From a virus (lineage: Duplodnaviria > Heunggongvirae > Uroviricota > Caudoviricetes), in IMG/VR virus record IMGVR_UViG_3300022468_000539, positions 30,703-94,702 of that record: 64,000 nucleotides of DNA; one strand, 5' to 3'. This document shows, piece by piece, positions 57 through 63,600 of this stretch (the first letter of the stretch is position 1; each line of letters begins with the position of its first letter). The notes below the pieces were generated by a model that was not told the origin of the DNA, searched no databases, and was given only the letters and a program-made list of their open reading frames with translations. The position numbers were made by a program, and so were the translations under genes.

Positions 57-452
57 ATGCGAGTAGCTGTAGTTGGCGGTAGAGATTTTACTGACTATGG
101 CTTGTTGAAGACAACATTAGCACCACTCAAAATAAGTCATATTATTTCAGGTGGTGCTAATGGTGCTGATACGTTGGCTGTTCAATATGCTATAGAAAAA
201 AGCATACCATTTACAGAATTTATACCTCAATGGTATGTGAATGGTCGATACGATAACCGTGCAGGATTTGTACGAAATAAACAAATTGTACATGCGTCTG
301 AAGTTGTCTATGCTTTTTGGAATGGTAAATCAAAGGGTACAAAATCAACAATTGATTTTGCCAATAAAATCGGTGTTAAATGTTTTGTGGTAACGTATGA
401 AACATTTTATGAAATAGAAGAGGAAAACGATTTATGGAAAATAACCTTGTAA
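57..452 (+). CDS. SLOG/DUF2493-like Rossmann-fold protein (YspA/DprA-like nucleotide-binding)
   Basis: Motif GGANGADTLAVQYA typical of the SLOG/DUF2493 family; 131 aa. Confidence 0.45.
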   Translation: MRVAVVGGRDFTDYGLLKTTLAPLKISHIISGGANGADTLAVQYAIEKSIPFTEFIPQWYVNGRYDNRAGFVRNKQIVHASEVVYAFWNGKSKGTKSTIDFANKIGVKCFVVTYETFYEIEEENDLWKITL

Positions 453-4150: not shown

Positions 4151-4828
4151 ATGAAATTGAGCAAAGCAACTTTGGCGGTACTGAAGAATTTTTCTTCTAT
4201 CAATGGAAACGTCATGATCGAAGCAGGTAACTATCTGCACACCCGTACCGTGGAGCGTAACATGTACGCATGCGCAACCGTGGAAGACGAATTCCCCAAA
4301 ACCTTTGGTATCTATGATCTGTCACAACTTTTGGGTGTGATCAGTTTGTTCAGTGAACCTGAGTTGGAATTTGGTGAGTCTTCCCTGACCATTAGCCAAG
4401 GTAAGAACCGTGTTGAATACCGTTATGCATCATCAGACATTCTGGCTTTCCCAGACAAGAAACTGACTGAGCCTAGTGTTGATGCGACATTCACTCTGAC
4501 CGAAGAAAACCTGAAGTCTCTGCTGAAAGCCGGTGCTGTTTTGGGATCGCAGATGTTGCGTATCGGTGGTGATGGTAAGACCATCACATGTACACTGTTA
4601 ACACTGGATAAGGACAATAACCCATCCACATCGTTTAACACCTTCAGCGTTGATGTTGGTGACACTGATAGCACTTTTAGTGTAGATATTCGCCTTGAAA
4701 ATATTAAGATGATGTCTGGTAACTATGAAGTGTCTTTATCCAAAAAGAAGATCGCTAAATTTGCAAACACAGGCACATCATATACCCTGTATGTGGCAAA
4801 CGAAAAGTCTTCTAAGTGGGAAGACTAA
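4151..4828 (+). CDS. 45: sliding clamp, T4 gp45-like
   Basis: 225 aa. The N-terminus MKLSKATLAVLKNFSSINGNVM...FGIYDLSQLLGVISLF aligns with T4 gp45 (MKLSKDTTALLKNFATINSGIM...AIYDLNGFLGILSLV). Confidence 0.75.
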   Translation: MKLSKATLAVLKNFSSINGNVMIEAGNYLHTRTVERNMYACATVEDEFPKTFGIYDLSQLLGVISLFSEPELEFGESSLTISQGKNRVEYRYASSDILAFPDKKLTEPSVDATFTLTEENLKSLLKAGAVLGSQMLRIGGDGKTITCTLLTLDKDNNPSTSFNTFSVDVGDTDSTFSVDIRLENIKMMSGNYEVSLSKKKIAKFANTGTSYTLYVANEKSSKWED

Positions 4829-7213: not shown

Positions 7214-7430
7214 GAGTGTATACCTTAATAAAACAGAGGCGAAGGAAAGAATCGCCAATGTGGTCTAAAGGGAACACTTCCAACATGGTATCGGAGAATA
7301 GGGCAGTAGTGACATAAGAGTGGTATCTTATGAATCGAAGTCGGGATAAGTACCAATCCCGCTAAACAGGAATCCGAACGATACCGGAGAAGATGTTTGA
7401 TTTTAGGTTCGAATCCTAATGTACTCACCA
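7214..7430 (+). ncRNA. 217-nt structured RNA with a tRNA-like acceptor stem (GAGTGTA/TGTACTC), T-arm and encoded ACCA; may be an intron-containing tRNA
   Basis: Perfect T-arm TTAGG-TTCGAAT-CCTAA. 3' end TGTACTC-A-CCA. Internal hairpins GGCGA..TCGCC, GGGAT..ATCCC, GGTATCG..CGATACC. Confidence 0.35.
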
Positions 7431-7460
7431 TATTAGTTTTAATGTTAATTTGGAGTTATT

Positions 7461-7706
7461 ATGAAAAAGTTTTTGGTTATCGCTGCAGTTGCACTTTTGA
7501 GCGCATGTACAAATACATCCAACGCAGAGCGTGTGTTGGCTGATAATGGATATACCGATATCCAAATGACTGGTTATAGTCTATTTGGTTGTGATAAAAA
7601 CGACACTTTTTCAGATGGCTTTAAAGCAAAAAGCCCAAATGGAAAAATGGTGGAAGGTGTTGTTTGCTCTGGAGTTTTTAAAGGTGCCACCATCCGGTTT
7701 AATTGA
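7461..7706 (+). CDS. small secreted lipoprotein (81 aa)
   Basis: Signal peptide with lipobox LLSAC; Cys-rich mature part; RBS GGAG. Confidence 0.5.
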   Translation: MKKFLVIAAVALLSACTNTSNAERVLADNGYTDIQMTGYSLFGCDKNDTFSDGFKAKSPNGKMVEGVVCSGVFKGATIRFN

Positions 7707-7715
7707 TATAAATAC

Positions 7716-7789
7716 TTACTCGTAGCTCAGTGTAGAGCGCCCTACTTTTAATGGGGAGGTCGGTGGGTCGTTCCCATCCGAGTAAACCA
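7716..7789 (+). tRNA. tRNA-Lys (TTT)
   Basis: Acceptor TTACTCG/CGAGTAA; D-arm GCTC..GAGC; anticodon loop CTTTTAA; ACCA encoded. Confidence 0.75.
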
Positions 7790-7904
7790 AGTTTGTAACC
7801 CTAAACGTCTAAGTAACCGAGACATGACGTTGAATTGCAAGAGAACTGCTGGCAAAGTCGATAAATTCCTTCTCAGGATGTGCAGTTAGCAAAGGGTTCA
7901 TTTA

Positions 7905-8029
7905 TTTTGTTGTGAAGGGGAATTGGTATACCCTACTGGTTGGATAATAGTGGGAAAGCGGTGTTTATCACCTTAAAGTAGCCCTCCTGTAAGCCGGTGC
8001 TTGTTTAGGTTCGAATCCTATCAACAAAA
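7905..8029 (+). ncRNA. 125-nt tRNA-like structured RNA (acceptor TTTTGTT/AACAAAA, T-arm TTCGAAT, extra hairpins)
   Basis: Acceptor complementarity and T-loop at 8010-8016; internal hairpins GGTG-TTTAT-CACC and AAGC-CGGT-GCTT. Confidence 0.3.
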
Positions 8030-8114
8030 AAAGAGCAAGTCGGGTAGCGCCCGAACAACTCAGATCAAGAGTTACATTGTTGATCCTGCGGGTGCAAGAA
8101 GTCCCGACCAAATT

Positions 8115-8204
8115 GGGGTGTTGGCCGAGTGGTCTAAGGCAGCGGTCTTGAAAACCGTCACTGGCGCAAGCTGGTCGTGGGTTCGAATCCTACACGCCCC
8201 GCCA
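8115..8204 (+). tRNA. tRNA-Ser (TGA)
   Basis: Type II: GGGGTGT acceptor, GCC-GAGTGGTCTAA-GGC D-arm, anticodon loop CTTGAAA, long variable arm, CCA encoded. Confidence 0.8.
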
Positions 8205-8325
8205 CTATATTATTAGGAAACAGTATGGCATTGCTAGAGTTTTGTTTTGCAATCTATCTAATTTTCAATGATCATCCAGTCATTGGAATAATTTTGTTGC
8301 TTGATTCTGTTTCACGTACATCTTA

Positions 8326-13139: not shown

Positions 13140-13459
13140 TTAGTGCAAAAGAAGCCAAAGAACTATACGACAACTCTGGTGCTGAAGTTGAGGATTTTCT
13201 GGCAAAAACTGTCGAGCCTGCGGTTATTAAAGCAGCCAGGGGTGGTAAGCGACAAGCCACTATTCATATTGGTTGTCAACGTGCCAGTATGCCTTATGAA
13301 ATAAAGTCACTGGATAGTAATGTTCTCGCTAAATTGCGAAATCTTGGATATACTGCTGGAATTCAATGGATTGATGAAGAATATGTACCAAGAGGTCTGC
13401 AAGATGATAACGGTAAAGGTACACTCCATCGTAACTATGGCTATCTCATTAAGTGGTAA
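13136..13459 (+). CDS. hypothetical protein
   Basis: 107-aa ORF. Confidence 0.4.
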   Translation: MISAKEAKELYDNSGAEVEDFLAKTVEPAVIKAARGGKRQATIHIGCQRASMPYEIKSLDSNVLAKLRNLGYTAGIQWIDEEYVPRGLQDDNGKGTLHRNYGYLIKW

Positions 13460-13461
13460 TT

Positions 13462-13932
13462 ATGAAAGTTTTTAAATCTCCCCAAGATACAAGTAACGTA
13501 AAAGATAGTGATTTTTCTATCTTTTTGGCAGGCTCTATTGAAATGGGCGTTGCTGAAGACTGGCAGACTCGACTCACTACCGCAATAGCTCTAGGTGGTA
13601 TTGAAATTACCATTTTTAATCCTCGTCGCGATGATTGGGATTCGTCATGGGTTCAAAGTATTCATGACAAGCAGTTTAATCAGCAAGTGACATGGGAAAT
13701 TGATCATTTGCTACAATCATCATTTATCGTTTTTTACTTTGATCCAAACACTAAATCACCTATCACTTTAATGGAGTTAGGATTGATAGCAGGCCAGTGT
13801 CGGGATGCTGTTGTTTGTTGTCCAGACGGTTTTTGGCGCAAAGGTAACGTGGAAATGATTTGTGACCGTTTCAATATTCCTATGGTTGAAAGTTTGGAAG
13901 AGCTTATTCAGTATGTGAAGCAAATTGTATGA
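13462..13932 (+). CDS. nucleoside 2-deoxyribosyltransferase-like protein (SLOG superfamily)
   Basis: FLAGSIEMG...DW and SPITLMELGLIAG motifs typical of the Nuc_deoxyri_tr2/DUF4406 family. Confidence 0.45.
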   Translation: MKVFKSPQDTSNVKDSDFSIFLAGSIEMGVAEDWQTRLTTAIALGGIEITIFNPRRDDWDSSWVQSIHDKQFNQQVTWEIDHLLQSSFIVFYFDPNTKSPITLMELGLIAGQCRDAVVCCPDGFWRKGNVEMICDRFNIPMVESLEELIQYVKQIV

Positions 13933-14720
13933 AATTTGTAATTCAACACAACCTTATCAATAAGCAATCACTCGAAAAGATTAGGAAGGCCACAGAGCAT
14001 CTTCCTGTTGTTTGGGTAGGTGCTATACCATTCTCTGAAGAAATCGCTTCTAACGATGAACTGGAGGGTCTGGAGTACATTCCTTATGGCTCGAACCTTC
14101 TGGCGCGTGTAGCAGCTAAAAGAGGCTGGAAAGGTCTACATCATGATCTTACAAAGCTGAACTATCGCAACTTTGTTGAACATCGTGCCGATATGCTGAA
14201 TTGTAATGTCATGTCTGCGGAGAGAGTTGTTGACTTTTTGGAAGTTGTCAATGGAATTCCATGGCCCAAAGAATATTTCATTCGGCCTAGTCTAGATGAC
14301 AAGCAATTCTCCGGTACAGTCATGGAACCGAAAGAAATCATTGAGTGGTTTAAATCGATGATGGAGAGTGGGCCGGGCAGCTACTACATGTCTCCAGAGA
14401 CAGATATTGTTATTGCTCTACCAAAGAAAATTCAAGCCGAGTGGCGATGGTTCATTGTTGGTGGTAAGATTATTTCTGGCTCCATGTATCGTGCCCATGA
14501 TCAGATGCAGTTGAAACAAGAAACCGACATCGAAGTCATTAAAGAAGCGCAAGCACTTGCAGACGTTTGGTTGCCATGCGATTGTGTCGTGATGGATACA
14601 GCCTTAGTTGATGACAAGGTTTATGTGTTGGAGTTTAACAACATTAACTCCAGTGGTTTTTATGAACACGATATTGGCGCGGTTTTTAACGCACTGTACG
14701 GATATCATACTAAACTGTGA
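13929..14720 (+). CDS. ATP-grasp domain protein (phage DUF4343-like)
   Basis: C-terminal RWFIVGGKIISGSMYR...VLEFNNINSSGF resembles the ATP-grasp fold. Confidence 0.45.
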   Translation: MKFVIQHNLINKQSLEKIRKATEHLPVVWVGAIPFSEEIASNDELEGLEYIPYGSNLLARVAAKRGWKGLHHDLTKLNYRNFVEHRADMLNCNVMSAERVVDFLEVVNGIPWPKEYFIRPSLDDKQFSGTVMEPKEIIEWFKSMMESGPGSYYMSPETDIVIALPKKIQAEWRWFIVGGKIISGSMYRAHDQMQLKQETDIEVIKEAQALADVWLPCDCVVMDTALVDDKVYVLEFNNINSSGFYEHDIGAVFNALYGYHTKL

Positions 14721-21723: not shown

Positions 21724-22776
21724 ATGAAAACATCTATCTCTCAACTCAAAACATATTTGGTCGGCGGCGCAGTTCGCGATATCTACATGGGAGAAATCCC
21801 AAAGGATCGTGACTACGTTGTGCTTGGTTCCTCTCCAGAAGAAATGCTTTCTCTGGGCTTCGAACAAGTCGGTGCTGACTTCCCTGTGTTTCTACATCCA
21901 GAGACAAAGGAAGAGTATGCTTTGGCTCGTCGTGAGCGCAAGGTTGGTTCTGGTTACCTTGGTTTTGAGTGTGAGTTTGGTGCTGATGTTACACTTGAAG
22001 AAGACCTGAACCGTCGCGATTTCACTTGCAACTCCATGGCAATGGATTTGGAAACAAACGAAATCTTTGACCCGTTTGATGGTCGCCACGACATCGACAG
22101 AGACACTCTCCGTATTACCTCTCCTGCCTTCAAAGAAGACCCTCTGCGCGTCTTGCGCATGGCACGTTTTGCTGCGCGTTATGATTGGCATATTTCGTCT
22201 GAGTCTGTTGGTATTGCACGAGAAGTTGTACTCTCCGGTGCATTGAATGAACTGCCTGCAGAGCGTTTCTGGAAAGAGATTGAAAAGTCTTTTGATGACG
22301 AATCATTGCGTGATTTTTTTGTTAACTTGGATTACCTTCTGGTTATGAATTTTTCCGAGTTTTTTAAGAATGCACTACCAAAGTGGGCTGTTTATAAATC
22401 ACATTTTGATGATCTTGAAAATGTGGAGTGGCTTTCTGCTCTGCTGTCGAATGAAAATACAACAATCTGGCTATCTGCACGTGCCAAACGCATTGCTAAG
22501 GCTTTGATGCTGGTTACACCGAGGAATGCAGAAACAATGTATAGTTACCTACTTGGATGTGATGCATTCCGCATGAGCAGTATCTTGCGCGATGTTGTAA
22601 GTATCAAAAAAACAGTATATTTTAATACATCAACACAAATCACCATTGGTGCATGTAACCTGTGCAAGACAGTCACTGCAACCGACTTCCCAAATCTGGA
22701 AGGAAAAGCGCTTGGTGATGCTATCAAAGACAAACGCATGCAATTGATCGCATGTCTCTATAACGATTTATTTTAA
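21724..22776 (+). CDS. tRNA nucleotidyltransferase (CCA-adding enzyme), class II
   Basis: N-terminal head YLVGGAVRDIYMG...DRDYVV (GGxVRD..DxD), ERRF..NSMA, and an HD-less short body. Promoter TGTGCTATAAT is 7 nt before the ATG. Confidence 0.65.
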   Translation: MKTSISQLKTYLVGGAVRDIYMGEIPKDRDYVVLGSSPEEMLSLGFEQVGADFPVFLHPETKEEYALARRERKVGSGYLGFECEFGADVTLEEDLNRRDFTCNSMAMDLETNEIFDPFDGRHDIDRDTLRITSPAFKEDPLRVLRMARFAARYDWHISSESVGIAREVVLSGALNELPAERFWKEIEKSFDDESLRDFFVNLDYLLVMNFSEFFKNALPKWAVYKSHFDDLENVEWLSALLSNENTTIWLSARAKRIAKALMLVTPRNAETMYSYLLGCDAFRMSSILRDVVSIKKTVYFNTSTQITIGACNLCKTVTATDFPNLEGKALGDAIKDKRMQLIACLYNDLF

Positions 22777-25920: not shown

Positions 25921-26142
25921 ATGAGTGAAGATGTTGCAATCTATGGGGTTAACAAATCCACAGGTGTTATGGAATTTTTAGGAAAAACATCAACACCACC
26001 AAGTATGAAACAACGAGAAATCGCTGTCGAATATTTTGGGAATTTTGAAGATGATGATGGATCAGACGCAGAAATGATGTTTGGTGCATTGGAACAGTAT
26101 CATAATTGGCTAGTCTCACAAGGTTGGAAAAAAGTTAATTAA
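25921..26142 (+). CDS. hypothetical protein
   Basis: 73-aa ORF. Confidence 0.35.
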   Translation: MSEDVAIYGVNKSTGVMEFLGKTSTPPSMKQREIAVEYFGNFEDDDGSDAEMMFGALEQYHNWLVSQGWKKVN

Positions 26143-26543
26143 TGACCCGAATTAATTCAAATATTCCACCTTCGGAATTGACTAGAGTACATCTAGTTGC
26201 TGAACTGCGTGAAATCACTATGGTGCCTGCCAGTTTGAAACGTTCTTTGCGTACTAAAACACCCAAAGACGTTTTGATTGGCATTCCTAAAAATTTCACA
26301 TTAAATGCAGGTCATGTCAAGTTTTTCCATAACAAGTTAGGCTTTCTCCAGAAGCGCTTCCATGCACTGGCTGATGAAATGGAGCGGCGCGGTTATACAC
26401 CTGATAGAAGCCGTGATGTTGCCTTTACAGGCTTCGATGAAGAGTGGATGAACGACTGGCAATCAACAAAGGTTGACGATGACATAGTTCGCGATAGAAT
26501 AGCTCTTCGCATATCAGAAAAACCGCATCTGTATAAAGATTGA
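26142..26543 (+). CDS. denV: pyrimidine-dimer DNA glycosylase, T4 endonuclease V-like
   Basis: MTRINSNIPPSELTRVHLVAELREI...GHVKFFHNKLGFLQKR aligns with T4 DenV ([24 protein letters not shown]...GHVTFFYDKLEFLRKR). Confidence 0.75.
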   Translation: MTRINSNIPPSELTRVHLVAELREITMVPASLKRSLRTKTPKDVLIGIPKNFTLNAGHVKFFHNKLGFLQKRFHALADEMERRGYTPDRSRDVAFTGFDEEWMNDWQSTKVDDDIVRDRIALRISEKPHLYKD

Positions 26544-26559
26544 CATAAGAAAGAATTAC

Positions 26560-27492
26560 ATGTTTGAAAATTTAGTTTGGGAACAACGCTATAGACCAAA
26601 GACTATTAGCGACACTATTTTGCCGCCATCCACCAAGAAAATGTTGAACGATATTATCAAGACCGGTAATATTCCCAATATGTTGTTTGCTGGCTCCGGT
26701 GGTATCGGTAAGACAACTGCAGCACGTGCTATTGCTGATGAAGTTGATGCAGAAATGCTTTACATTAACGCATCGCTTGAAGGTAATATCGATACGATCC
26801 GCACAACGCTCACACAGTTCGTGAGTACCGTTTCCATGGAAGACCGTCGCAAAATTGTTTTGCTTGATGAATCCGATTATCTCTCGAATTCCGCACAGCC
26901 TGCTTTACGTGGGTTTCTGGATGAATTCTCCAGTAATGCATCTTTCATTTTCACCTGCAACTTCCCACAGCGTATTATTGATCCGTTGATTTCTCGTTTG
27001 CAAGTTATCGACTTCAAATTTGCCAAGACCGAAAAGGTCGATGCAATGAAGCAGATGCTATCACGTGCGGAATATGTTCTCACAACCGAAGGCATCACCT
27101 ATGATAAAAAGGCTGTCGCAACACTGGTTGGTAAGTATTTTCCTGATTTCCGTAAGACTCTGGGCCAACTTCAGAAGTTCTCTACTTCCGGTGAGATTAC
27201 ATCCGATATCCTGAGTTTTGGGGATGGTTCTGACATTGATGAACTGATTGGCTACGTGAAGGATAAAAACTTCTCAAAATGCCGCCAGTGGGTCGCTAAT
27301 AGCTCTCCAGACGCATCAACGTTCTATCGTGCTATCTACGACAAGCTGCTGCCTATTTTGGTACCTGCAAGCATTCCTCCTGTCATTTTGGCTATTGCTG
27401 AATCTCAGTATCGTGCAAGTGCTACAATCGATCCAGAAATCAACACGGTTGCTTTCCTGATCCAACTAATGTCAACAGCACAATTTAAATGA
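26560..27492 (+). CDS. 44: clamp-loader large subunit, T4 gp44-like (AAA+)
   Basis: WEQRYRPKTISD, Walker A GSGGIGKTT, DFRKTLGQL all matching T4 gp44. Confidence 0.75.
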   Translation: MFENLVWEQRYRPKTISDTILPPSTKKMLNDIIKTGNIPNMLFAGSGGIGKTTAARAIADEVDAEMLYINASLEGNIDTIRTTLTQFVSTVSMEDRRKIVLLDESDYLSNSAQPALRGFLDEFSSNASFIFTCNFPQRIIDPLISRLQVIDFKFAKTEKVDAMKQMLSRAEYVLTTEGITYDKKAVATLVGKYFPDFRKTLGQLQKFSTSGEITSDILSFGDGSDIDELIGYVKDKNFSKCRQWVANSSPDASTFYRAIYDKLLPILVPASIPPVILAIAESQYRASATIDPEINTVAFLIQLMSTAQFK

Positions 27493-27941
27493 AATACACT
27501 AGATCGATATTAGGATTTTCTGGCGAGTATCGATTTCTTTCTAACTTCTACCCAATTGAGTTTGAAGTAGATGGTGAGTTGTATACATCATCAGAGCAAT
27601 ACTACATGGCTGCTAAATGTGCAGACCCTCTGGAACGTGCTAAGATAATGGCTTTCGACAAACCAAGTCTAATCAAGAAATTGGGTAGCAAGGTTAAGCT
27701 GGTTGAAGGTTGGGATGATGGATTGCGCGACAAAGCGATGATGACTGCTTTGAAGGCTAAATTCTCGACCCACTTAAAAGGTAGTCTGTATATGACTACC
27801 GGTGCCTATCTAGAAGAAACCAATCATTGGAACGATACCTATTGGGGTGTCTGTGACGGTGTTGGTCAAAATAAATTAGGTCGCATGTTGATGTGGTTGC
27901 GTGACCATCATCTGTTTAAAAATTTCGAGGATTGTCCTTAA
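27489..27941 (+). CDS. NADAR-domain (YbiA-like) protein
   Basis: GEYRFLSNFYPIEFEVDGELYTSSEQYYMAAK is the NADAR/DUF1768 signature. Inserted between the 44 and 62 homologues. Confidence 0.55.
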   Translation: MKYTRSILGFSGEYRFLSNFYPIEFEVDGELYTSSEQYYMAAKCADPLERAKIMAFDKPSLIKKLGSKVKLVEGWDDGLRDKAMMTALKAKFSTHLKGSLYMTTGAYLEETNHWNDTYWGVCDGVGQNKLGRMLMWLRDHHLFKNFEDCP

Positions 27942-28345
27942 TGCCCTCCCCATTTGATTACGTAAAATCATTTACATCCACAAAGGTGAACCTGTATGAG
28001 ACAGAATCACTTTTCATAAAGGATTATGTACCCTTTGTTGTCAATCGTGCCCTGTCAAATGATCCTAGGTGCGCTTTATTCGTGGATGCCATAGCTACCT
28101 ACCCAGACCTAGATAAAAAGCTGCAGCACGACTTCTATTTCTATGGCCTACCCAAGTTGAAGACTGGTAGCATGTGGACAAAGAAACAGGATGCCGAACT
28201 GAATATGGATCATGTCAAGATACTGGCAACTGATCTTAATGTATCGATAGAAAGAGCTATTGAGCTACTACCTTTGATTGACGAAGAAGAATTGGTTAAC
28301 TATGCCAAACTACAGGGTGGCAAAGTGGGTAAGCGCGGGAAATAG
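27932..28345 (+). CDS. 62: clamp-loader small subunit, T4 gp62-like
   Basis: Position between 44 and regA; FVVNRALSNDPRCALFVDAIATYP resembles gp62 [22 protein letters not shown]. Confidence 0.5.
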   Translation: MSLMPSPFDYVKSFTSTKVNLYETESLFIKDYVPFVVNRALSNDPRCALFVDAIATYPDLDKKLQHDFYFYGLPKLKTGSMWTKKQDAELNMDHVKILATDLNVSIERAIELLPLIDEEELVNYAKLQGGKVGKRGK

Positions 28346-28388: not shown

Positions 28389-28784
28389 ATGTCAGAAAAC
28401 TTTGAATACGGTGTTGAAATCACTCTTCCCAAACCAGACTCCTTTGCTATCATTGTCGAGTCATTGACTCGTATCGGCATCAAATCCAAAAAATCCAATA
28501 CCCTGTATCAAAGCTGCAGTTTGCTTCATAGGCGTGGTAAGTATTACATCATGCACTATAAGGAATTTTTCAAGATTGATGGTAAACATGCTGAGATTGA
28601 TGAAGAAGATTTACGTAGGCGGAATGAGATTACCAAGCTACTTGCCAAATGGGGACTCTGTGTTATAGTTGATAAAGATTCGGTTGCACTGGCAACACCA
28701 GAAACTCCGATTGATATTATTCCATTCAAAGTTAAAAAAGAATGGGCATTAATTCCTAAATACACGGTAGGTAAAAAGAAATAA
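28389..28784 (+). CDS. regA: translational repressor RegA
   Basis: VEITLPKPDSF...TLYQSCSLLHRRGKYYIMHYKEF...KKEWALIPKYTVGK aligns with T4 RegA. Confidence 0.75.
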   Translation: MSENFEYGVEITLPKPDSFAIIVESLTRIGIKSKKSNTLYQSCSLLHRRGKYYIMHYKEFFKIDGKHAEIDEEDLRRRNEITKLLAKWGLCVIVDKDSVALATPETPIDIIPFKVKKEWALIPKYTVGKKK

Positions 28785-29487: not shown

Positions 29488-29772
29488 ATGAGTATCGTGC
29501 AAACATCCCAAATCAACTTCCCTAACGATCCCGCAACCCTGAAGACCATTAAGGATGCATTGTTTGAAATCAGCGCATCCATGACACGTGTAGAGGGTGA
29601 AAAAGATTTCCAGAAAGAAGCACTGAGTGATCTGGCTGAGAAAACCGAAGTGCCGGTCAAGTTTTTAAAGACATGTGCCTCCATTTACCATCGCCAGAAT
29701 AAAGACCAAGTAGAAGGTGATAAAGAGGCAGTTTTTGAGCTTTATGACGCTATTTTTGGAGAGGCTTCTTAA
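29488..29772 (+). CDS. hypothetical protein
   Basis: 94-aa ORF. Confidence 0.4.
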   Translation: MSIVQTSQINFPNDPATLKTIKDALFEISASMTRVEGEKDFQKEALSDLAEKTEVPVKFLKTCASIYHRQNKDQVEGDKEAVFELYDAIFGEAS

Positions 29773-30694
29773 TAGCGTACCAACCTCTAAAAGGTACAAC
29801 TTTATCTAAATGGTGGTTCATTTTAATAGGTGATCCACCATTTCTATATGATATTCGTAGTGCCGATTCTGGTAGACCATTTTCATTACAGTATTCGATA
29901 AAGTTACCGACTGCAGTGTGACGCAAAATACCAAGTTCATCAAAAATTTCAATAATCGAAGCAGTATTTGAGTTTGAACCTGATACCGCCAGTTTGTGAT
30001 TTTCTTTATGTGTTTCTGACCATTCGTTAGGAATACCTATTTTAGAATCTGAGATTTTTTTTCTATGTTCTTGTGAAAGCGGCACACCTTTATTAGGATT
30101 TGAATATGATGGATTTAAATCAGACATCTTCTGATTTTTATTCCAAACAGGCTTTTCTTTGCGTGTCTTTTTAAATTTTTCGATTGTTTCTTCTGAATGT
30201 TTCTTACCTTTCATTCCAGAAACACGACCTTTGAGTGATGCACTTATCTTTTTCTTTGTTGCTTCCGAAGGCTTTCTACGTTTTTTGACACCTGCGCGAA
30301 TATTTTCTAGTGCTGCTCCAGTTCTTTTTGGGTATTTCTTACCCTTTAATTTTGAAGCAACACCTTTGAGTGGATTATACTTTTCATCATATGCCATTTT
30401 TGATGCAAAGGCTCTGTTAATATAAAGTGGATTATTTGGAGCATTAACTGCTTTCTGCAACTTATTTTCTTTCTCTGTTGCCTCATCTCTCGTTTTAAAT
30501 GTTTTTAAAATGATTGTTTTGAAAAGGTGAGGGCTTGTTGCTCTTTCTGAAGCCCAAATGCTTTTAAACATTTTTGATGAAACACTACCGTTGTAGTTTT
30601 CATTTTGTATCCGGTTTACAGTTGTTGAGCCGATATAAAAAGGTGGAAGTTTGTTACCACTATAGATAGTGAGATAGACGCAATAAATAGACAT
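29750..30694 (-). CDS. GIY-YIG homing endonuclease (Seg-like) with NUMOD3 repeats
   Basis: IYCVYLTIYSGNKLPPFYIGST (GIY..YIG), catalytic R/E region, repeated S.E.R.KIS NUMOD3-like motifs. Antisense to, and immediately upstream of, gene 43. Confidence 0.6.
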   Translation of the reverse strand: MSIYCVYLTIYSGNKLPPFYIGSTTVNRIQNENYNGSVSSKMFKSIWASERATSPHLFKTIILKTFKTRDEATEKENKLQKAVNAPNNPLYINRAFASKMAYDEKYNPLKGVASKLKGKKYPKRTGAALENIRAGVKKRRKPSEATKKKISASLKGRVSGMKGKKHSEETIEKFKKTRKEKPVWNKNQKMSDLNPSYSNPNKGVPLSQEHRKKISDSKIGIPNEWSETHKENHKLAVSGSNSNTASIIEIFDELGILRHTAVGNFIEYCNENGLPESALRISYRNGGSPIKMNHHLDKVVPFRGWYAIKKPLQK

Positions 30695-30817
30695 GCTGAT
30701 AGTTCCTTGTAAACTGTTAGAGGTCTTGGGTATTGGCGTACCGCGAAGACCATTTTTGTTGACTGTAGCGATTAGAGGGCTACAATATTATTTATTGTTT
30801 ACGGAATGTCTACTCTG

Positions 30818-57453: not shown

Positions 57454-57900
57454 TCATACCAATCCATTTTTATCCTCCCATGGTAATACAGGGTCAGCGA
57501 TCCAGCGCCGACGCATACGATCCATTGCCTCTGCAGGCACATTGTGAATAGAACCGAAAGAGCCATGCACGGAAATCACTTGCGGGATAATTCCAAGTTG
57601 CAGTGCAATTTCAAAGTAAGGGTTCAGTTCACGCTGAGTAGTGAAAGTGTTGGATACAACAACACTCCAACCTTCTTGCAGCTTTTGCGCCACATTAGAC
57701 TCACACCAGTGATGTGCAGCACCGAGCTTATTCAGGTCGAAGTTGTAGTTACCTTGCTTGTCATAGAAGTACATGTCAGCTTCATAATGACGCCATCCAC
57801 CATCCATAGCAATCTTTCGGGCAATGGTACTTTTACCCGAGCCCGGCAAACCCCTCACAATCACAAAGTAGGGTTTGGTCTTACCATCCGATGCTTGCAT
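57454..57900 (-). CDS. P-loop kinase (polynucleotide kinase-like, AAA_33 type)
   Basis: Walker A VRGLPGSGKST. Size and pattern are like the kinase domain of T4 Pnk (CPGSGKST). Start moved to the RBS-supported ATG. Confidence 0.45.
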   Translation of the reverse strand: MQASDGKTKPYFVIVRGLPGSGKSTIARKIAMDGGWRHYEADMYFYDKQGNYNFDLNKLGAAHHWCESNVAQKLQEGWSVVVSNTFTTQRELNPYFEIALQLGIIPQVISVHGSFGSIHNVPAEAMDRMRRRWIADPVLPWEDKNGLV

Positions 57901-58096
57901 AATAAATTTCCTTCTTGTAGTTGAAAGCAGCACGAACTGCTTCTGGATATACGACATACCACAAATTGTCCAATGCAGACATTGTGGTTCCACGAACTGT
58001 GCAACGACCTTTACTGTCTGTCTCACGCATCAACTCTTTGTGCATTGCTTCAATGATTTGTTCGCCAATTTTGATTGCGTCAGACTTAGTGATCAT
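57881..58096 (-). CDS. hypothetical protein
   Basis: 71-aa ORF. Confidence 0.3.
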   Translation of the reverse strand: MITKSDAIKIGEQIIEAMHKELMRETDSKGRCTVRGTTMSALDNLWYVVYPEAVRAAFNYKKEIYYASIGW

Positions 58097-58127
58097 TTTG
58101 AACCTCGTTTGAATTTAGATGTATGGA

Positions 58128-59090
58128 TTATACACCAATTTTGTACGGTTTCAAAATATCTGTCTTATTTTCCACAAACAAGAAGTCATCCAAGAAATCT
58201 CGTTTCACTTCAGACAGTCGCAAATAATTAAGTGACGCATATTCACGAAACCAGCCGGATGTCAGAGTCGTACAAATCTTCTGCAACGCTTTCCGGTACA
58301 GTTCTTGCATGTAATCACCATCAAATCCAACACCATCTTCCCGATAGCGGTTAATTCGAATACTTTTGCGGTAAGGCAAATACCCACGCTCCAAAGCAAT
58401 CACCCAAGCCTCTTCCATGACACATGCATCTTTGACAGCATCAGGTGCATTCTCAAACAGATCACCAGATGATAAAACTTCACCCTTAGCGATATGCATA
58501 TACGCAGGCTTTTCGCCTATAGCAATAGCAGCATGAATTGAGTCATGATCATAGATATATTGTACACCATCATTCGAAAAGAATTCAGATTTACTGACAT
58601 TCAGTTTGATAGGTGGTCGATTATATGTCTCTTTCTCTCGCAACTCCAGAATCTGTTTCAGCGGTTCAGAAACTCTAGACTTGTACTGCTTTGACATGTA
58701 GGTTTTCAGCTTCTCCATATTTTTATGGAAATGCATAGAATCCCGATACCGGTGTGATTCACGGATAACATACATCAAGCTAAGTGGTGCCACATTATAA
58801 AGTTTTTCAGGATTCCCTACAGAATCCATCAAATCAAGAATTGCAGCACCAGAAGAACCTTTGAAAGCCAGTTCAACTTCGATAATACTAATCTTGTTTG
58901 TTTCGTGTTTGACCCGAATAACAAGATGGTTGCTGCTAATCGGATATTGTTCGATGATCTTTCCACCAAAGCCATCGAGTAATTGCTTCACAGCATTAGG
59001 CCGAACAATAAAATCCCAATCCCGATTTTCATCGATATCGAAATAGTTGTATTCAGCACGTGATCCGATTAGAACAGCAGTATTTTTCAT
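58128..59090 (-). CDS. hypothetical protein with a pol-beta-type nucleotidyltransferase-like N-terminus
   Basis: LIGSRAEYNYFDIDENRDWDF (G-S ... D-x-D pattern). Confidence 0.3.
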   Translation of the reverse strand: MKNTAVLIGSRAEYNYFDIDENRDWDFIVRPNAVKQLLDGFGGKIIEQYPISSNHLVIRVKHETNKISIIEVELAFKGSSGAAILDLMDSVGNPEKLYNVAPLSLMYVIRESHRYRDSMHFHKNMEKLKTYMSKQYKSRVSEPLKQILELREKETYNRPPIKLNVSKSEFFSNDGVQYIYDHDSIHAAIAIGEKPAYMHIAKGEVLSSGDLFENAPDAVKDACVMEEAWVIALERGYLPYRKSIRINRYREDGVGFDGDYMQELYRKALQKICTTLTSGWFREYASLNYLRLSEVKRDFLDDFLFVENKTDILKPYKIGV

Positions 59091-59548
59091 TAGTAACCTG
59101 ACGAAGACCAGTATTGATCCGAGTTATTGTAAGAAGATGTAGTGGAGTCACCGAAGTTATAAGAGAAGCCCACATAAACAATTTTTGGATCGACGCTGTT
59201 AACCAGACGCTCAATTTCGCTTTCCAGACTATTCAGTTGGTTGCGAATTTCAGAAAGTCGAACGTTGACTGCAGCAGCCTTTTCTTGTTCTTTATCTTCC
59301 TTGCGCGCCTTTTCTTCAGCAATACGCTGTGCTTCCTTACGGGCTTGCTCTTTGCGCTCTTCTTCCTTACGGGCTTCTTCAGCCTTATCCGCTTCCTGCT
59401 TCAGTTTAGCGCGGCGTTGTTTTTCGGCATTGGCAGTTTTCAACAAAGCAGCAATCGCTTTGTCGTTCAATTGGCTCATATCCAATTCAACATCCTGAAG
59501 AGTAGATGCGGAAGTGGTGAGTTGCGAAGTTGTTCTACGAGTTACCAT
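59090..59548 (-). CDS. K/E/R/A-rich coiled-coil protein
   Basis: AEKQRRAKLKQEADKAEEARKEEERKEQARKEAQRIAEEKARKEDKEQEKAAA low-complexity helix. Confidence 0.4.
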   Translation of the reverse strand: MVTRRTTSQLTTSASTLQDVELDMSQLNDKAIAALLKTANAEKQRRAKLKQEADKAEEARKEEERKEQARKEAQRIAEEKARKEDKEQEKAAAVNVRLSEIRNQLNSLESEIERLVNSVDPKIVYVGFSYNFGDSTTSSYNNSDQYWSSSGY

Positions 59549-59572
59549 TTCAGTTTCCTTAAATTAAATGCA

Positions 59573-60142
59573 TCAGTCTCCGTGATGCGTTGACCTTGTT
59601 TCAAATTGGAGACACTTACGAATTTCTTCCAGAGAATATGGTTTCATATCCCCTGCAGCACGTGTATCAATACCAACATCCATACACTTTCCGGTGTTTG
59701 GCTGTTGATAGTTTGAATGCCGATGACCATGCAGATGTGTTGAACCGTATCTTGACGAATCCCATGATTCAATCGGGAAATGACACAGGATGTAAGAAGT
59801 CTTCCCAATCTTCAATTTCTTGTAGTCTTGGATAGACGCAAACACGCCCATGAATCGCAATTCGCTTTCATCATCATGGTTACCGAGAATCAGATGATGG
59901 TTGCAATGATCAGAAATCCGGCGCAGCAGCTTTTTGGTTTCATCATATTTGCCAAAGGTAATGTCGCCCAGATTCCACAGGTCGCCACCCTCTGGAACGG
60001 TGTTAATCACATTATAAATGATCAGTTCATTCATTTCTTCGAGGGTCGAACCCTTACGCGAGAATGGGCAGAATTGCTGAATTCTTTTATGGAAAAGATG
60101 CCAATCCGAAGTGAAGTATGGTTGTTGTTCAATTTTATTCAT
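59573..60142 (-). CDS. calcineurin-like metallophosphoesterase
   Basis: SDWHLFH (GDxH-like), GDITFG (GDxxDRG-like) and GNHDDE motifs. Leaderless arrangement: TGGTGTATAAT is 6 nt before the ATG. Confidence 0.55.
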   Translation of the reverse strand: MNKIEQQPYFTSDWHLFHKRIQQFCPFSRKGSTLEEMNELIIYNVINTVPEGGDLWNLGDITFGKYDETKKLLRRISDHCNHHLILGNHDDESELRFMGVFASIQDYKKLKIGKTSYILCHFPIESWDSSRYGSTHLHGHRHSNYQQPNTGKCMDVGIDTRAAGDMKPYSLEEIRKCLQFETRSTHHGD

Positions 60143-60149
60143 ATGTTGA

Positions 60150-60455
60150 TTATACACCAAAAATCTTGTTGTATTCACTTTTTGAAATTTTTTTGTAGTA
60201 GCCATGTTCAGAAAGTGATACATATTCCCCATTTAAAATTTTCTCTCTTAGGGGTTTAAACAATTCCTCAACAGTGAATTCCTCATATGCGCGATATTGT
60301 ACCATATCATGAGCATCCTGTAATGTTATCTCATTTTTTGCCATACATTCTCGCGTTAAAGCACCAATAAATGATTGAACAATTAGTAATGTAGTTTGAT
60401 CTAAACGTGATCCAACAACCTTTTTGTCAAATTCTTCGCGGAGTCTTGACTCCAT
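60150..60455 (-). CDS. hypothetical protein
   Basis: 101-aa ORF. Confidence 0.35.
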   Translation of the reverse strand: MESRLREEFDKKVVGSRLDQTTLLIVQSFIGALTRECMAKNEITLQDAHDMVQYRAYEEFTVEELFKPLREKILNGEYVSLSEHGYYKKISKSEYNKIFGV

Positions 60456-60456
60456 T

Positions 60457-60774
60457 TCAAGACTCCAAAACTTTAATCATGTGATCAACCCAAGCGTGGC
60501 GGTATGCTTGACGCTTTTCATACGTGCTAAGGTCGATATCTTTATTAAGATATAACCATCCAGTAATAAACATTTCACCTTTAAGTTGTTTTCGAATCCA
60601 ACCTTTAACCAATGCCTTTGATATTACATCACAATCCGTGTCATCAACTGCCCAACATACATATATTTGCTTGTCACTTTTTATGTCGAAGAAATTTCCA
60701 GATAATAGTTTTTTCTTCGCTTCCTTCAAGCATTGAGCCATAGCCAAATGTTGTTCACGTGTTAAATTTGCCAT
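60457..60774 (-). CDS. hypothetical protein
   Basis: 105-aa ORF. Confidence 0.35.
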   Translation of the reverse strand: MANLTREQHLAMAQCLKEAKKKLLSGNFFDIKSDKQIYVCWAVDDTDCDVISKALVKGWIRKQLKGEMFITGWLYLNKDIDLSTYEKRQAYRHAWVDHMIKVLES

Positions 60775-60781
60775 AATAGCC

Positions 60782-61717
60782 TCACAGAGTAGAGTTCAAC
60801 AGATTGCGCATGTATTCCAGACGGTCTTGCTCAGGCATTACCTTAAACAATTCATCATTACGCAGTTTTTCAATCAGAGGATAAAATTCTTCCTCAACAC
60901 GAGCCATGTTCAGTGCCATGATATCAGCCTTACGAGCCACCATCTTTTGGAACAGGTAAGCCTTAGACTTGATCTTGATCATTTCACCTTTAGTGTAGTT
61001 GAAGATCACATAACCTTCATGTGGTGCCTCACGTGCCATTTTCACAGCATCTACGAACCGCATATCAGGAATAGGGTCATACCACTCAGACACTTCAGCA
61101 TACTTTGCAATTTCTTGAAAAGCAGAATCACCATAGGTCAGCATCAATCGTGCATTGTCGAACGAATAGAATTCGGTACCTTGGTAAATAATTGAGAGTA
61201 GATAAGCACCATACTTTTCAGGAATGATGTGTGGATCGTCAGGATGGCAAATCTCAAACATATAGGTAGTTTCAGGGCACAGGGTTGATGGATCAATATC
61301 CTTCAGATACGTTTCGGCATATCCAACAAAATCAGAATCCAGAGAGCCAGTAGTACCAATGAGCAGCTTACCGTTGTAAACACTCAAGGATGCCATGAAT
61401 CCATTCACCTTGCGAGAAACACCCACAAATGTCCGTGGATGCCAGTCTACACCAGCACCGTTTTCTTGGTAGTTGTAGATTTTCTTGAATGGTAATTGAA
61501 CCACATTGAAATCAGCATCCACAACCAAACCACGGCAGTGACGCAGCATTTCGTTTTGATCCCACAAATTGTTGAAAAATACACGACGAGTGTACTTCAG
61601 TACAGACAGACCTTGATAGCGCTTAGACTCTTTACGAGTCACCAGACGAGGATTGTTCAGAACGAATTCTTTGAGATTTTCACGGTCAATACCGTAGTTG
61701 TGCGAAGTGAGTTCCAT
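60782..61717 (-). CDS. rnlA: RNA ligase 1 (T4 RnlA-like)
   Basis: HCRGLVV (T4 ECRGIMF), KIYNYQEN (KFFNLNEN), nucleotidyl-lysine motif RKVNGFMAS (TKEDGSLVS), EGYVIF..IKIKS (EGYVAV..FKIKS). Confidence 0.7.
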   Translation of the reverse strand: MELTSHNYGIDRENLKEFVLNNPRLVTRKESKRYQGLSVLKYTRRVFFNNLWDQNEMLRHCRGLVVDADFNVVQLPFKKIYNYQENGAGVDWHPRTFVGVSRKVNGFMASLSVYNGKLLIGTTGSLDSDFVGYAETYLKDIDPSTLCPETTYMFEICHPDDPHIIPEKYGAYLLSIIYQGTEFYSFDNARLMLTYGDSAFQEIAKYAEVSEWYDPIPDMRFVDAVKMAREAPHEGYVIFNYTKGEMIKIKSKAYLFQKMVARKADIMALNMARVEEEFYPLIEKLRNDELFKVMPEQDRLEYMRNLLNSTL

Positions 61718-62918: not shown

Positions 62919-63164
62919 TTAACCGCTCTTTAAAAGTTGTTCATGATAGGCTTCGCGCAAAAGTTTTTGACCCTTCTTAGTCACTCTCCATGTCTTTTCG
63001 CCAATTAGCCCCAATTGTACCATAATCATTGTGATAGTGTGACCACAATGATATCCGACAGCACGTTTAAACACTGAAGCATTCAAAAGTTCGCGTTTAT
63101 CAGCACCACCAAAGTTTGTGTTGCGGAAAGCTAATTCCAATTCTTCGTCAGAGACTATAGACAT
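62919..63164 (-). CDS. hypothetical protein
   Basis: 81-aa ORF. Confidence 0.35.
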   Translation of the reverse strand: MSIVSDEELELAFRNTNFGGADKRELLNASVFKRAVGYHCGHTITMIMVQLGLIGEKTWRVTKKGQKLLREAYHEQLLKSG

Positions 63165-63600
63165 AAATTTTTAAATCCTGTTTTTGCCACTTATCAAACA
63201 TTGGTTCGATCTTACTCCAATCACACCCACCAAGACCGCACCCGATTTTAGGAATGACAATTGTATTGAACATCTTCATGACGAATGCGAGATTACTTTC
63301 AATAGCTTCATAAGAAGCATACTGCTTTCCATCTTTTCCGTAGAATTCCTGAGTGATTGCAGACGCGAGATAGATGTCTGTTTTATAGTCTTTTGATAAA
63401 GAGCAGTCTCCGAGTCCAAGACCTGAAGCAAGATCGTCCACGTAATGTTTGAATGCTTTTGGATATCTTTCTTTAAACTCTTTAGCAACACCGCTACCCA
63501 TGACACCTTGTTTGTTGCAACCATGCATGAATACTTTTCTTCCGTGGTCTTTGGAAAAATCATGATCAAACATGTTACCTTTACGATATTCAATCTGCAT
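63148..63600 (-). CDS. macro-domain protein, TARG1/C6orf130-like (ADP-ribose hydrolase family)
   Basis: HGCNKQGVMGSGVAKEFKERYP and IPKIGCGLGGCDW...KIYVYSL parallel human TARG1 ([21 protein letters not shown] ... MPRIGCGLDRLQW ... ITVYTL). Confidence 0.5.
   Translation of the reverse strand: MQIEYRKGNMFDHDFSKDHGRKVFMHGCNKQGVMGSGVAKEFKERYPKAFKHYVDDLASGLGLGDCSLSKDYKTDIYLASAITQEFYGKDGKQYASYEAIESNLAFVMKMFNTIVIPKIGCGLGGCDWSKIEPMFDKWQKQDLKIYVYSL

Follow-up and report, generated by a model that had tools for sequence, protein, structure and literature searches.

A YbiA-like NADAR gene embedded in the clamp-loader operon of a distant T4-type phage, a candidate counter-DarT1 ADP-ribosylglycohydrolase

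Introduction

Phage NADAR proteins that act as 'orphan antitoxins' against DarTG1 were found in 2024 (PMC11257639), and a macrodomain type directed against DarTG2 followed in 2026 (PMC13309987). The subject of this study is a NADAR-domain gene that lies between the clamp-loader genes 44 and 62 in a 64,000-nucleotide stretch of the IMG/VR virus record IMGVR_UViG_3300022468_000539 (positions 30,703 to 94,702 of that record; hereafter the window, to which all statements about the whole genome are limited), considered together with a macro-domain gene found elsewhere in the same stretch.

Among the described phage NADARs, AdfN, which is T4 gp30.3, was characterized by Johannesman, Carlson and LeRoux (2024; PMC11257639) as a NADAR-superfamily DNA ADP-ribosylglycohydrolase that is required for resistance to DarTG1 and also suffices for it, activity being lost in the E36A and K43A mutants. 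In the same work three phage NADARs of different clades (AdfN, Bas32 and Bas60) countered DarTG1 on DNA, and NADAR-Bas32 neutralized DarT1 and restored plaquing of DarTG1-sensitive phages. Cihlova et al. (2024; PMC11125620) tested DarT1-linked and sigma70-linked NADARs as well as E. coli YbiA and T4 gp30.3, all of which removed ADP-ribose from guanine and none from thymine; these published enzymes uphold the premise of the original prediction for this locus, made from the DNA letters, that NADARs reverse guanine ADP-ribosylation. YbiA-type enzymes also remove cytidine-linked ADP-ribose. Among macrodomains, SCO6735 cleaves thymidine-linked ADP-ribose on single-stranded DNA and rescues cells from DarT (PMC9411070), and AdfM (PhiKZ gp104; PMC13309987) is a phage macro-type anti-DarT2 factor that is imported into the phage nucleus. 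Iyer et al. (2022) described the joint occurrence of Macro, NADAR and SLOG domains in large phages and found a NADAR in 27% of myoviruses.

Results and Discussion

The NADAR protein has a YbiA-like core and a conserved Glu/Lys/Glu active site

The original prediction had placed a NADAR gene at 27489–27941, between genes 44 and 62, and a macro-domain gene at 63148–63600. Both open reading frames (ORFs) were recovered at exactly these coordinates, and both family assignments held in profile searches, the NADAR scoring 69.9 bits against Pfam PF08719 (cut-off 35.1) and the macro protein 42.6 bits against Pfam PF01661 (cut-off 22). The NADAR match (E 4e-19) spans profile positions 9–160 of 163, and the protein also matches PHROG 1017. 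Among sequences of known structure it matched E. coli YbiA (2b3w; E 2e-15) and the ADP-ribose-bound PnNADAR of Phytophthora (8bau; E 2.5e-10). An AlphaFold model built on 62 homologues, with a predicted local distance difference test (pLDDT) score of 95.4, adopts a YbiA-like α-helical core with two small flanking β-sheets. A Foldseek comparison of this model with the PDB gave template modelling (TM) scores of 0.82 to 2b3w and 0.81 to 8bau, and no other significant match.

In these alignments E36, K43, E110, D116 and W119 of the window protein correspond to E43, K50, E125, D130 and W133 of PnNADAR, and the E36/K43 pair falls at positions identical to E36/K43 of AdfN. Mutation of PnNADAR E43/K50 or of AdfN E36/K43 (AdfN: PMC11257639) abolishes activity, and PnNADAR E125 binds the distal ribose. 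None of the 62 homologues departs from E36 or E110, and conservation of K43 among them is 90% or more. Taken from sequence and model, the protein is predicted to be a catalytically competent single-domain ADP-ribosylglycohydrolase. The chain starts with the core itself and has no N-terminal extension like that of the DarT1-linked antitoxins, and Glu110 assigns it to the broad group that de Souza and Aravind call the 'YbiA family'; the same residue excludes the Asp-type DarT1-linked group and the His-type T4 'phage NADAR' group.

Of the relatives tested by experiment, NADAR-Bas32 (bas32_0066 of the T5-like phage IrisVonRoten) is the closest; it is 39–40% identical over 137 residues (E 3e-27) and shares the Glu/Lys/Glu residues. 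Its gene likewise lies among replication and nucleotide-metabolism genes, but IrisVonRoten belongs to the Demerecviridae and the gene is free-standing beside RNase H, with no overlap with essential genes. AdfN resembles the window protein in being a single-domain protein of about 150 amino acids from a T4-type phage that lacks an N-terminal extension and carries the Glu36/Lys43 pair, and also in its presumed role, the removal of guanine-linked ADP-ribose from phage DNA. It differs in its Pfam family, T4 gp30.3 matching PF08010 (Phage_30_3) at 237.5 bits whereas the window protein belongs to PF08719, in having His in place of Glu110, and in its gene position near alt and gene 30, outside the clamp-loader operon. 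Orthology of the two was rejected, as BLASTP gave only E 0.023 and 20% identity in an alignment around the LSNF motif, and no second gene of the AdfN type was found in the window.

Two cellular proteins also invite comparison. E. coli YbiA (2b3w) is the best structural match (TM 0.82, 32–35% identity) and is likewise a bare core with the Glu residue, but it has a documented N-glycosidase activity on riboflavin intermediates. The sigma70-linked NADAR of pathogenic E. coli (PMC11125620) sits in the rpsU-dnaG-rpoD operon, a parallel to embedding in a replication operon; both are cellular genes, unlike the gene described here. DarG1 (Schuller et al. 2023; PMC11543638) shares the superfamily and the chemistry, hydrolysis of guanine-N2-linked ADP-ribose. 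In DarG1 of the BC4488 type, however, the DarT1 gene is adjacent, the catalytic residue is Asp and there is a basic N-terminal β1-β2-α1 extension, and the window NADAR has none of the three.

Both the window NADAR and NADAR-Bas32 match the PADLOC candidate defence component PDC-M42C, and the NCBIfam model 'NADAR family anti-phage protein' gives the window protein a weak score of 26 bits. These models indicate that NADARs occur on the defence side too.

The NADAR gene is embedded in the clamp-loader unit

The genes and signals of the region, all on the + strand, are as follows.

27489–27941, + strand: NADAR-domain gene, 150 amino acids (Pfam PF08719, AlphaFold model, residue conservation)
27594–27596, 27615–27617 and 27816–27818, + strand: NADAR codons for the catalytic residues E36, K43 and E110, from the alignments
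26560–27492, + strand: gene 44, clamp-loader large (AAA+) subunit (Pfam Gp44_lid, AAA and DNA_pol3_delta2; PHROG 168, E 3e-100)
27941–28345, + strand: gene 62, clamp-loader small subunit (Pfam Phage_clamp_A, 34.7 bits; PHROG 225)
28389–28784, + strand: regA, translational repressor, the next gene in the string (Pfam Translat_reg, 127.7 bits)
27927–27931, + strand: GAGGA Shine-Dalgarno sequence of gene 62, inside the 3' end of the NADAR coding region, 9 nucleotides before the ATG (read from the sequence)
26473–26500, + strand: sigma-70-like promoter match just upstream of gene 44, TTGACG-16-TAGAAT, 10 of 12 positions (weak evidence)

As read from the sequence, the NADAR start codon overlaps the stop codon of gene 44 in an ATGA at 27489–27492, and the ATG of gene 62 overlaps the NADAR stop codon in a TAATG at 27939–27943. 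Promoter-like sites in the region were no more numerous than expected from shuffled sequence, no terminator-like site was found on the + strand between 26560 and 30010, and the scan gave no convincing internal promoter or terminator that would separate the NADAR gene from genes 44 and 62. The guanine-plus-cytosine content of the gene equals that of its flanks, so this measure carries no compositional signal of recent horizontal acquisition. Because of the start and stop overlaps, the internal ribosome-binding site of gene 62, the flank-like base composition and the lack of a separating terminator in the stretch scanned, the NADAR gene is, as judged from these features, physically and translationally embedded in the clamp-loader unit.

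A gene for a DenV-type pyrimidine-dimer glycosylase (26142–26543, + strand) directly precedes gene 44 in the window and is not found at that place in two related loci of the survey described below (L001 and L093). The sliding-clamp gene 45 (4151–4828) lies about 21.7 kb upstream of gene 44, with mostly small accessory ORFs between, whereas in Synechococcus phage BUCT-ZZ01 and Acidovorax phage ACP17 it immediately precedes gene 44; the canonical 45-44-62 cluster is therefore split in the window phage. Farther downstream, a GIY-YIG/NUMOD3 homing-endonuclease gene (29750–30694, − strand) lies between the regA region and the DNA polymerase gene 43 and is conserved in L001, in which another GIY-YIG-like ORF takes the place of the window's 5'-nucleotidase-like gene (L001 coordinates 7266–8228 and 2146–2991).

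The arrangement is fixed within a clade of distant T4-type phages

A megablast search against GenBank phages found no near-identical DNA, and for lack of a close relative at the DNA level the phage was placed by protein similarity only. Its gp44 is at most 50% identical to that of any deposited phage, with BUCT-ZZ01 (50%) and ACP17 as the top matches, and on this basis the source is classed as an undescribed, distant T4-type myovirus. For a wider comparison, 80 IMG/VR loci with relatives of gp44 were surveyed along with GenBank examples, and gp44, gp62 and RegA were located in each; 91 loci in total were fetched for a count of the 44/62 junctions.

The string 44-NADAR-62-regA is common to L001, L002 and L003 (NADAR 91–93% identical to that of the window), L094 (82%) and L093 (74%). 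In the comparison with L001 the NADAR is 93% identical, gp44 87%, gp62 80% and RegA 92%, and with L093 the corresponding values are 74%, 71%, 62% and 67%. The ratio of nonsynonymous to synonymous divergence (dN/dS) was mostly not computable, and because dS was saturated, dN and amino-acid identity were used alone. Between the window and L001, dN is 0.043 for the NADAR, 0.096 for gp44, 0.130 for gp62 and 0.057 for RegA. The NADAR thus matches or exceeds its essential neighbours in conservation, evolves more slowly than the flanking gp44, gp62 and RegA, is under strong purifying selection and is vertically inherited. The fixed position in the clade and this slow evolution argue that ADP-ribosylation of DNA exerts a strong and widespread selective pressure, one that would extend beyond the enterobacterial model systems.

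The junction that the gene occupies is itself variable among T4-like phages. Inserts of about 0.2 to 2.9 kb separate genes 44 and 62 in 62 of the 91 loci, and in the nearest sister group (gp44 58–61% identical) the two genes are directly adjacent. A cluster of D12-class Dam methyltransferases fills the slot in 29 loci, an N6/N4 DNA methyltransferase in three loci of a near sister lineage, and a homologue of the DenV-type glycosylase in one (L062). Its other contents are HNH endonucleases, an ATP-grasp enzyme of the RimK type and several small conserved ORFs without assigned function; DNA methyltransferases and homing endonucleases make up most of the cargo. In ACP17 a 79-amino-acid ORF occupies the slot, and the NADAR gene is located at another place in the genome. 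This hypervariable slot is seen across marine and freshwater T4-like phages (L012–L089). The frequency of inserts makes the junction a recurrent cargo slot in which the NADAR is one more cargo, so that although the gene order 44-62-regA is indeed kept, the description of the NADAR as interrupting an otherwise conserved order was overstated. Since the cargo in other T4-like lineages consists mostly of DNA-acting enzymes (methyltransferases, DenV), the 44/62 junction can be regarded as a repeated site for enzymes that protect or modify DNA.

Probable function of the NADAR

The NADAR would be made from an mRNA shared with gp44 and gp62 and translationally coupled to both, and would hence appear as phage DNA replication starts. 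It would then behave as an 'orphan antitoxin', cleaving the N-glycosidic linkage of ADP-ribose to guanine, and perhaps to cytosine, on single-stranded phage DNA that had been modified beforehand by a DarT1-type or similar ADP-ribosyltransferase of the host, and the removal of ADP-ribose would restore a template that the replisome can copy. We consider it probable that the protein strips host-DarT1-modified phage DNA in this way as replication begins, both the substrate and the counter-defence role being carried over from its homologues. Such a role is the best-supported function, as had been proposed for the locus, because the closest tested relative, NADAR-Bas32, rescues phages from DarTG1; it is not a new principle.

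Several observations weigh against this assignment. YbiA and T4 gp30.3 hydrolyse guanine-linked ADP-ribose in vitro without rescuing cells from DarT1 (PMC11125620), so that in vitro chemistry is no guarantee of a counter-defence role, and the basic N-terminal extension that is the proposed single-stranded DNA binder of DarT1-linked NADARs is missing here. With 35% identity, E. coli YbiA is almost as near to the window protein as NADAR-Bas32 is, and the protein's score of 71.3 bits with NCBIfam TIGR02464, the model for the N-glycosidase acting on riboflavin intermediates, is narrowly below the cut-off of 73.7. A 61%-identical NADAR (P0006; L096 1149–2760) has a different setting, with a Thg1-like gene of the tRNA-His guanylyltransferase family a few hundred bases upstream of it. 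Finally, small ADP-ribose derivatives were argued by Iyer et al. (2022) to be the targets of most NADAR and Macro domains of phages.

The last two of these points bear on the possibility that the NADAR degrades small immune signals or toxins derived from ADP-ribose, or de-ADP-ribosylates guanosine in RNA, and does not act on DNA. It gains from the co-occurrence of phage NADAR, Macro and SLOG domains, from the presence in the window of a SLOG protein (57–452) as well as the macro protein, from the fact that no hydrolases other than NADARs are known to reverse the ADP-ribosylation of guanosine in RNA, and from the Thg1-like tRNA repair gene adjoining the 61%-identical homologue. Since the proposal of Iyer et al., however, three phage NADARs have been shown to act on DNA against DarTG1 (PMC11257639), and the window NADAR is co-translated with replication proteins and not with the RNA-repair genes at 57.4–61.7 kb, so that we regard this alternative as unlikely. 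An enzyme that, like YbiA, cleaves N-glycosidic bonds to destroy reactive ribosylamine metabolites of the riboflavin pathway or similar compounds, with no role on DNA, appears less probable still and is given a low likelihood. YbiA is the best PDB match by both sequence and fold, the window protein is a bare YbiA core with no extension, its score comes near the TIGR02464 cut-off, and close homologues are named 'ribA/ribD-fused uncharacterized protein' or 'N-glycosidase YbiA' by JGI. Yet that score falls short of the curated threshold, the window ORFs that were scanned include no riboflavin genes, and YbiA itself removes guanine-linked ADP-ribose while enzymes of its type remove the cytidine-linked form; the placement in the clamp-loader operon and a conservation stronger than that of essential neighbours would be hard to explain by metabolite clean-up.

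It is very improbable that the NADAR, the macro protein or both reverse Alt/Mod-like ADP-ribosylation by the phage itself and so limit collateral damage. The T4 NADAR gene 30.3 is close to alt, and T4-like NADARs are expressed early together with ADP-ribosyltransferases (Iyer et al. 2022), but a tblastn search of the window found no Alt-like gene and the T4 ADP-ribosyltransferases act on arginine in proteins, a modification that NADARs are not known to reverse. The removal of ADP-ribose from phage DNA stays the preferred function, and an extension of it may be put forward with a small chance of being right: the NADAR, made with the clamp loader and possibly riding on it, would clear guanine-linked ADP-ribose at the fork as a replisome-coupled repair enzyme, and the companion macrodomain, of a family that includes T4 Tk.4, would be the factor behind DarTG2 resistance of T4-type phages. 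If this were true, the placement between genes 44 and 62 would be functional and not accidental.

The macrodomain is of a Gln type and its substrate is less certain

The second gene is the following.

63148–63600, − strand: macro-domain gene, 150 amino acids, ALC1-like class, Gln-type (H26, N29, Q84, K89, G120, G122; Pfam PF01661, 42.6 bits)

The protein matches PHROG 335. Its sequence matches in the PDB are yeast Poa1p, which is the best, SCO6735, the DarG macrodomains and human TARG1, and in a fold search the top 21 PDB matches are all of the ALC1-like class, with TM scores of 0.74–0.82 that are effectively tied. In the model (pLDDT 94.1) the strand 76–84 ends at Q84, at the position of TARG1 Lys84 and DarG Lys80, and the PB-loop reads GCGLGG where TARG1 has GCGLDR with the catalytic Asp125. 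The C-terminal part of the TARG1 sequence used in the comparison is confirmed by a PDB alignment. The active-site residues of the macro protein are conserved in a 62-member family alignment.

The original prediction called this protein TARG1-like. That description fits its class, which includes TARG1, DarG and SCO6735, but not its residues, which are of the Gln type. TARG1-type catalysis by a Lys84/Asp125 dyad was rejected in view of Gln84 and GCGLGG, and with the dyad missing the TARG1 mechanism cannot be assumed. A DarG-type enzyme, with a catalytic Lys (K80 in the Taq protein) and a C-terminal DarT-binding domain, was also rejected, as there is Gln at this position and the protein has only 150 amino acids. 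It scores 56.6 bits with NCBIfam antitoxin_DarG, for which the cut-off is 250, and 59.4 bits with the PADLOC DarG model, in the macro part only. BLASTP had suggested K89 as the equivalent of the lysine, but the model and the alignment with SCO6735 put Q84 there and K89 in a mobile loop, which is about four residues longer than in TARG1.

These features recall SCO6735, in which an essential Gln85 is held by Asn27, the PB-loop contains glycines, and Lys89 sits on a mobile loop that exceeds that of TARG1 and DarG by five residues (PMC9411070). Gln85, Asn27, His24, Gly126/Gly128 and Lys89 of SCO6735 (PDB 5e3b) are matched by Q84, N29, H26, G120/G122 and K89. Val25 (or Ile) and the DNA-binding Lys34 are replaced by Gly27 and Ser36, both invariant in the 62-member phage-type family, and SCO6735 is a DNA-damage-inducible cellular gene, unlike the phage macro gene. 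AdfM is, like the window protein, a stand-alone macrodomain of the DarG/TARG1 class (BLASTP E 6e-13, 26% identity), but it keeps the DarG catalytic Lys78 and scores 132.9 bits with the PADLOC DarG model, with which the window protein reaches 59.4 and T4 Tk.4 36. The latter is a homologue of the window protein (28.9% identity, E 3e-7) that shares the HGCN and TQ motifs of the Gln-type active site (L103 4423–4890) and is annotated 'A1pp phosphatase motif'. T-even phages' resistance to DarTG2 is unexplained (Johannesman et al., PMC11257639), and the Gln-type character of the Tk.4 family makes T4 tk.4 a candidate for it; no paper linking Tk.4 to macrodomain function or DarTG2 resistance was found in the literature searched.

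By analogy with SCO6735, the macro protein may match the task of the NADAR on thymine-linked ADP-ribose, a possibility that we hold to be roughly even with the processing of ADP-ribose metabolites. In the latter case the protein would be an ADP-ribose-1''-phosphate phosphatase or an O-acetyl-ADP-ribose deacetylase in NAD or RNA-repair metabolism and not a DNA de-ADP-ribosylase, which in our judgement comes close to an even chance. Poa1p is the top PDB match in sequence and fold, although it has Ser at the Gln position, and PHROG 335, many phage records ('phosphatase') and the annotation of Tk.4 agree with such an activity. The genomic setting is also favourable, as genes for an RnlA-type RNA ligase, a phosphoesterase and a PNK-like kinase belong to the leftward string that contains the macro gene, and in Acinetobacter phages the homologue adjoins a nicotinamide phosphoribosyltransferase gene; by its place among RNA-repair genes, a metabolite role in RNA repair or NAD turnover remains a serious rival. 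The SCO6735-type residues with the long mobile loop and the PADLOC DarG score argue against it, and no gene for Tpt1/KptA, the producer of ADP-ribose-1''-phosphate, was present among the ORFs scanned.

Co-occurrence of the two genes and relation to known phage systems

The NADAR and macro genes are 35 kb apart, on opposite strands and in different transcription units, so there is no operon link between them and the 'toolkit' of the original prediction amounts to their co-occurrence, which Iyer et al. (2022) had already described. In a cluster look-up both window proteins were recorded on 10 contigs, the longest of 198,204 bp, and a sister genome of 198,322 bp (4 contigs) has a NADAR that falls into the same 90% cluster and a macro protein with 83% identity. 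The matching contig counts and sizes in the look-up point indirectly to the two genes travelling together. T4 also has such a pair, the NADAR-superfamily protein gp30.3 and Tk.4, which together with the co-occurrence reported by Iyer et al. means that the combination is common in T4-type phages and not new.

The claim that an anti-ADP-ribosylation function was undescribed for T4-type phages does not survive the literature, as AdfN has been published (PMC11257639, PMC11125620), AdfM has been too, and T4 has tk.4. The locus is a further example of a phage ADP-ribose-removal strategy already known from T4 and others. What appears modestly new is that the NADAR is a third, independently acquired type in the T4 superfamily, with a Glu-type YbiA-like core and not orthologous to AdfN. 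Its fixed, translationally coupled position in the clamp-loader unit across a clade down to 74% identity, under a constraint tighter than that of the essential genes beside it, is likewise modestly new, as is the recognition of the Tk.4-family macrodomain as a Gln type like SCO6735.

Other genes of the window

The SLOG-family protein encoded at 57–452 (+ strand) matches Pfam YAcAr at 42.5 bits and is of the cpYpsA kind. The RNA-repair-type genes, for an RnlA-like RNA ligase, a phosphoesterase and a PNK-like kinase, occupy 57454–61717 (− strand) downstream of the macro gene, and a nucleotidyltransferase resembling CCA-adding enzymes is encoded at 21724–22776 (+ strand). At 13453–14720 (+ strand) a nucleoside 2-deoxyribosyltransferase-like gene (Pfam, 116 bits) overlaps the following gene for an R2K-clade ATP-grasp enzyme, and this pair could be a nucleotide- or DNA-modification module.

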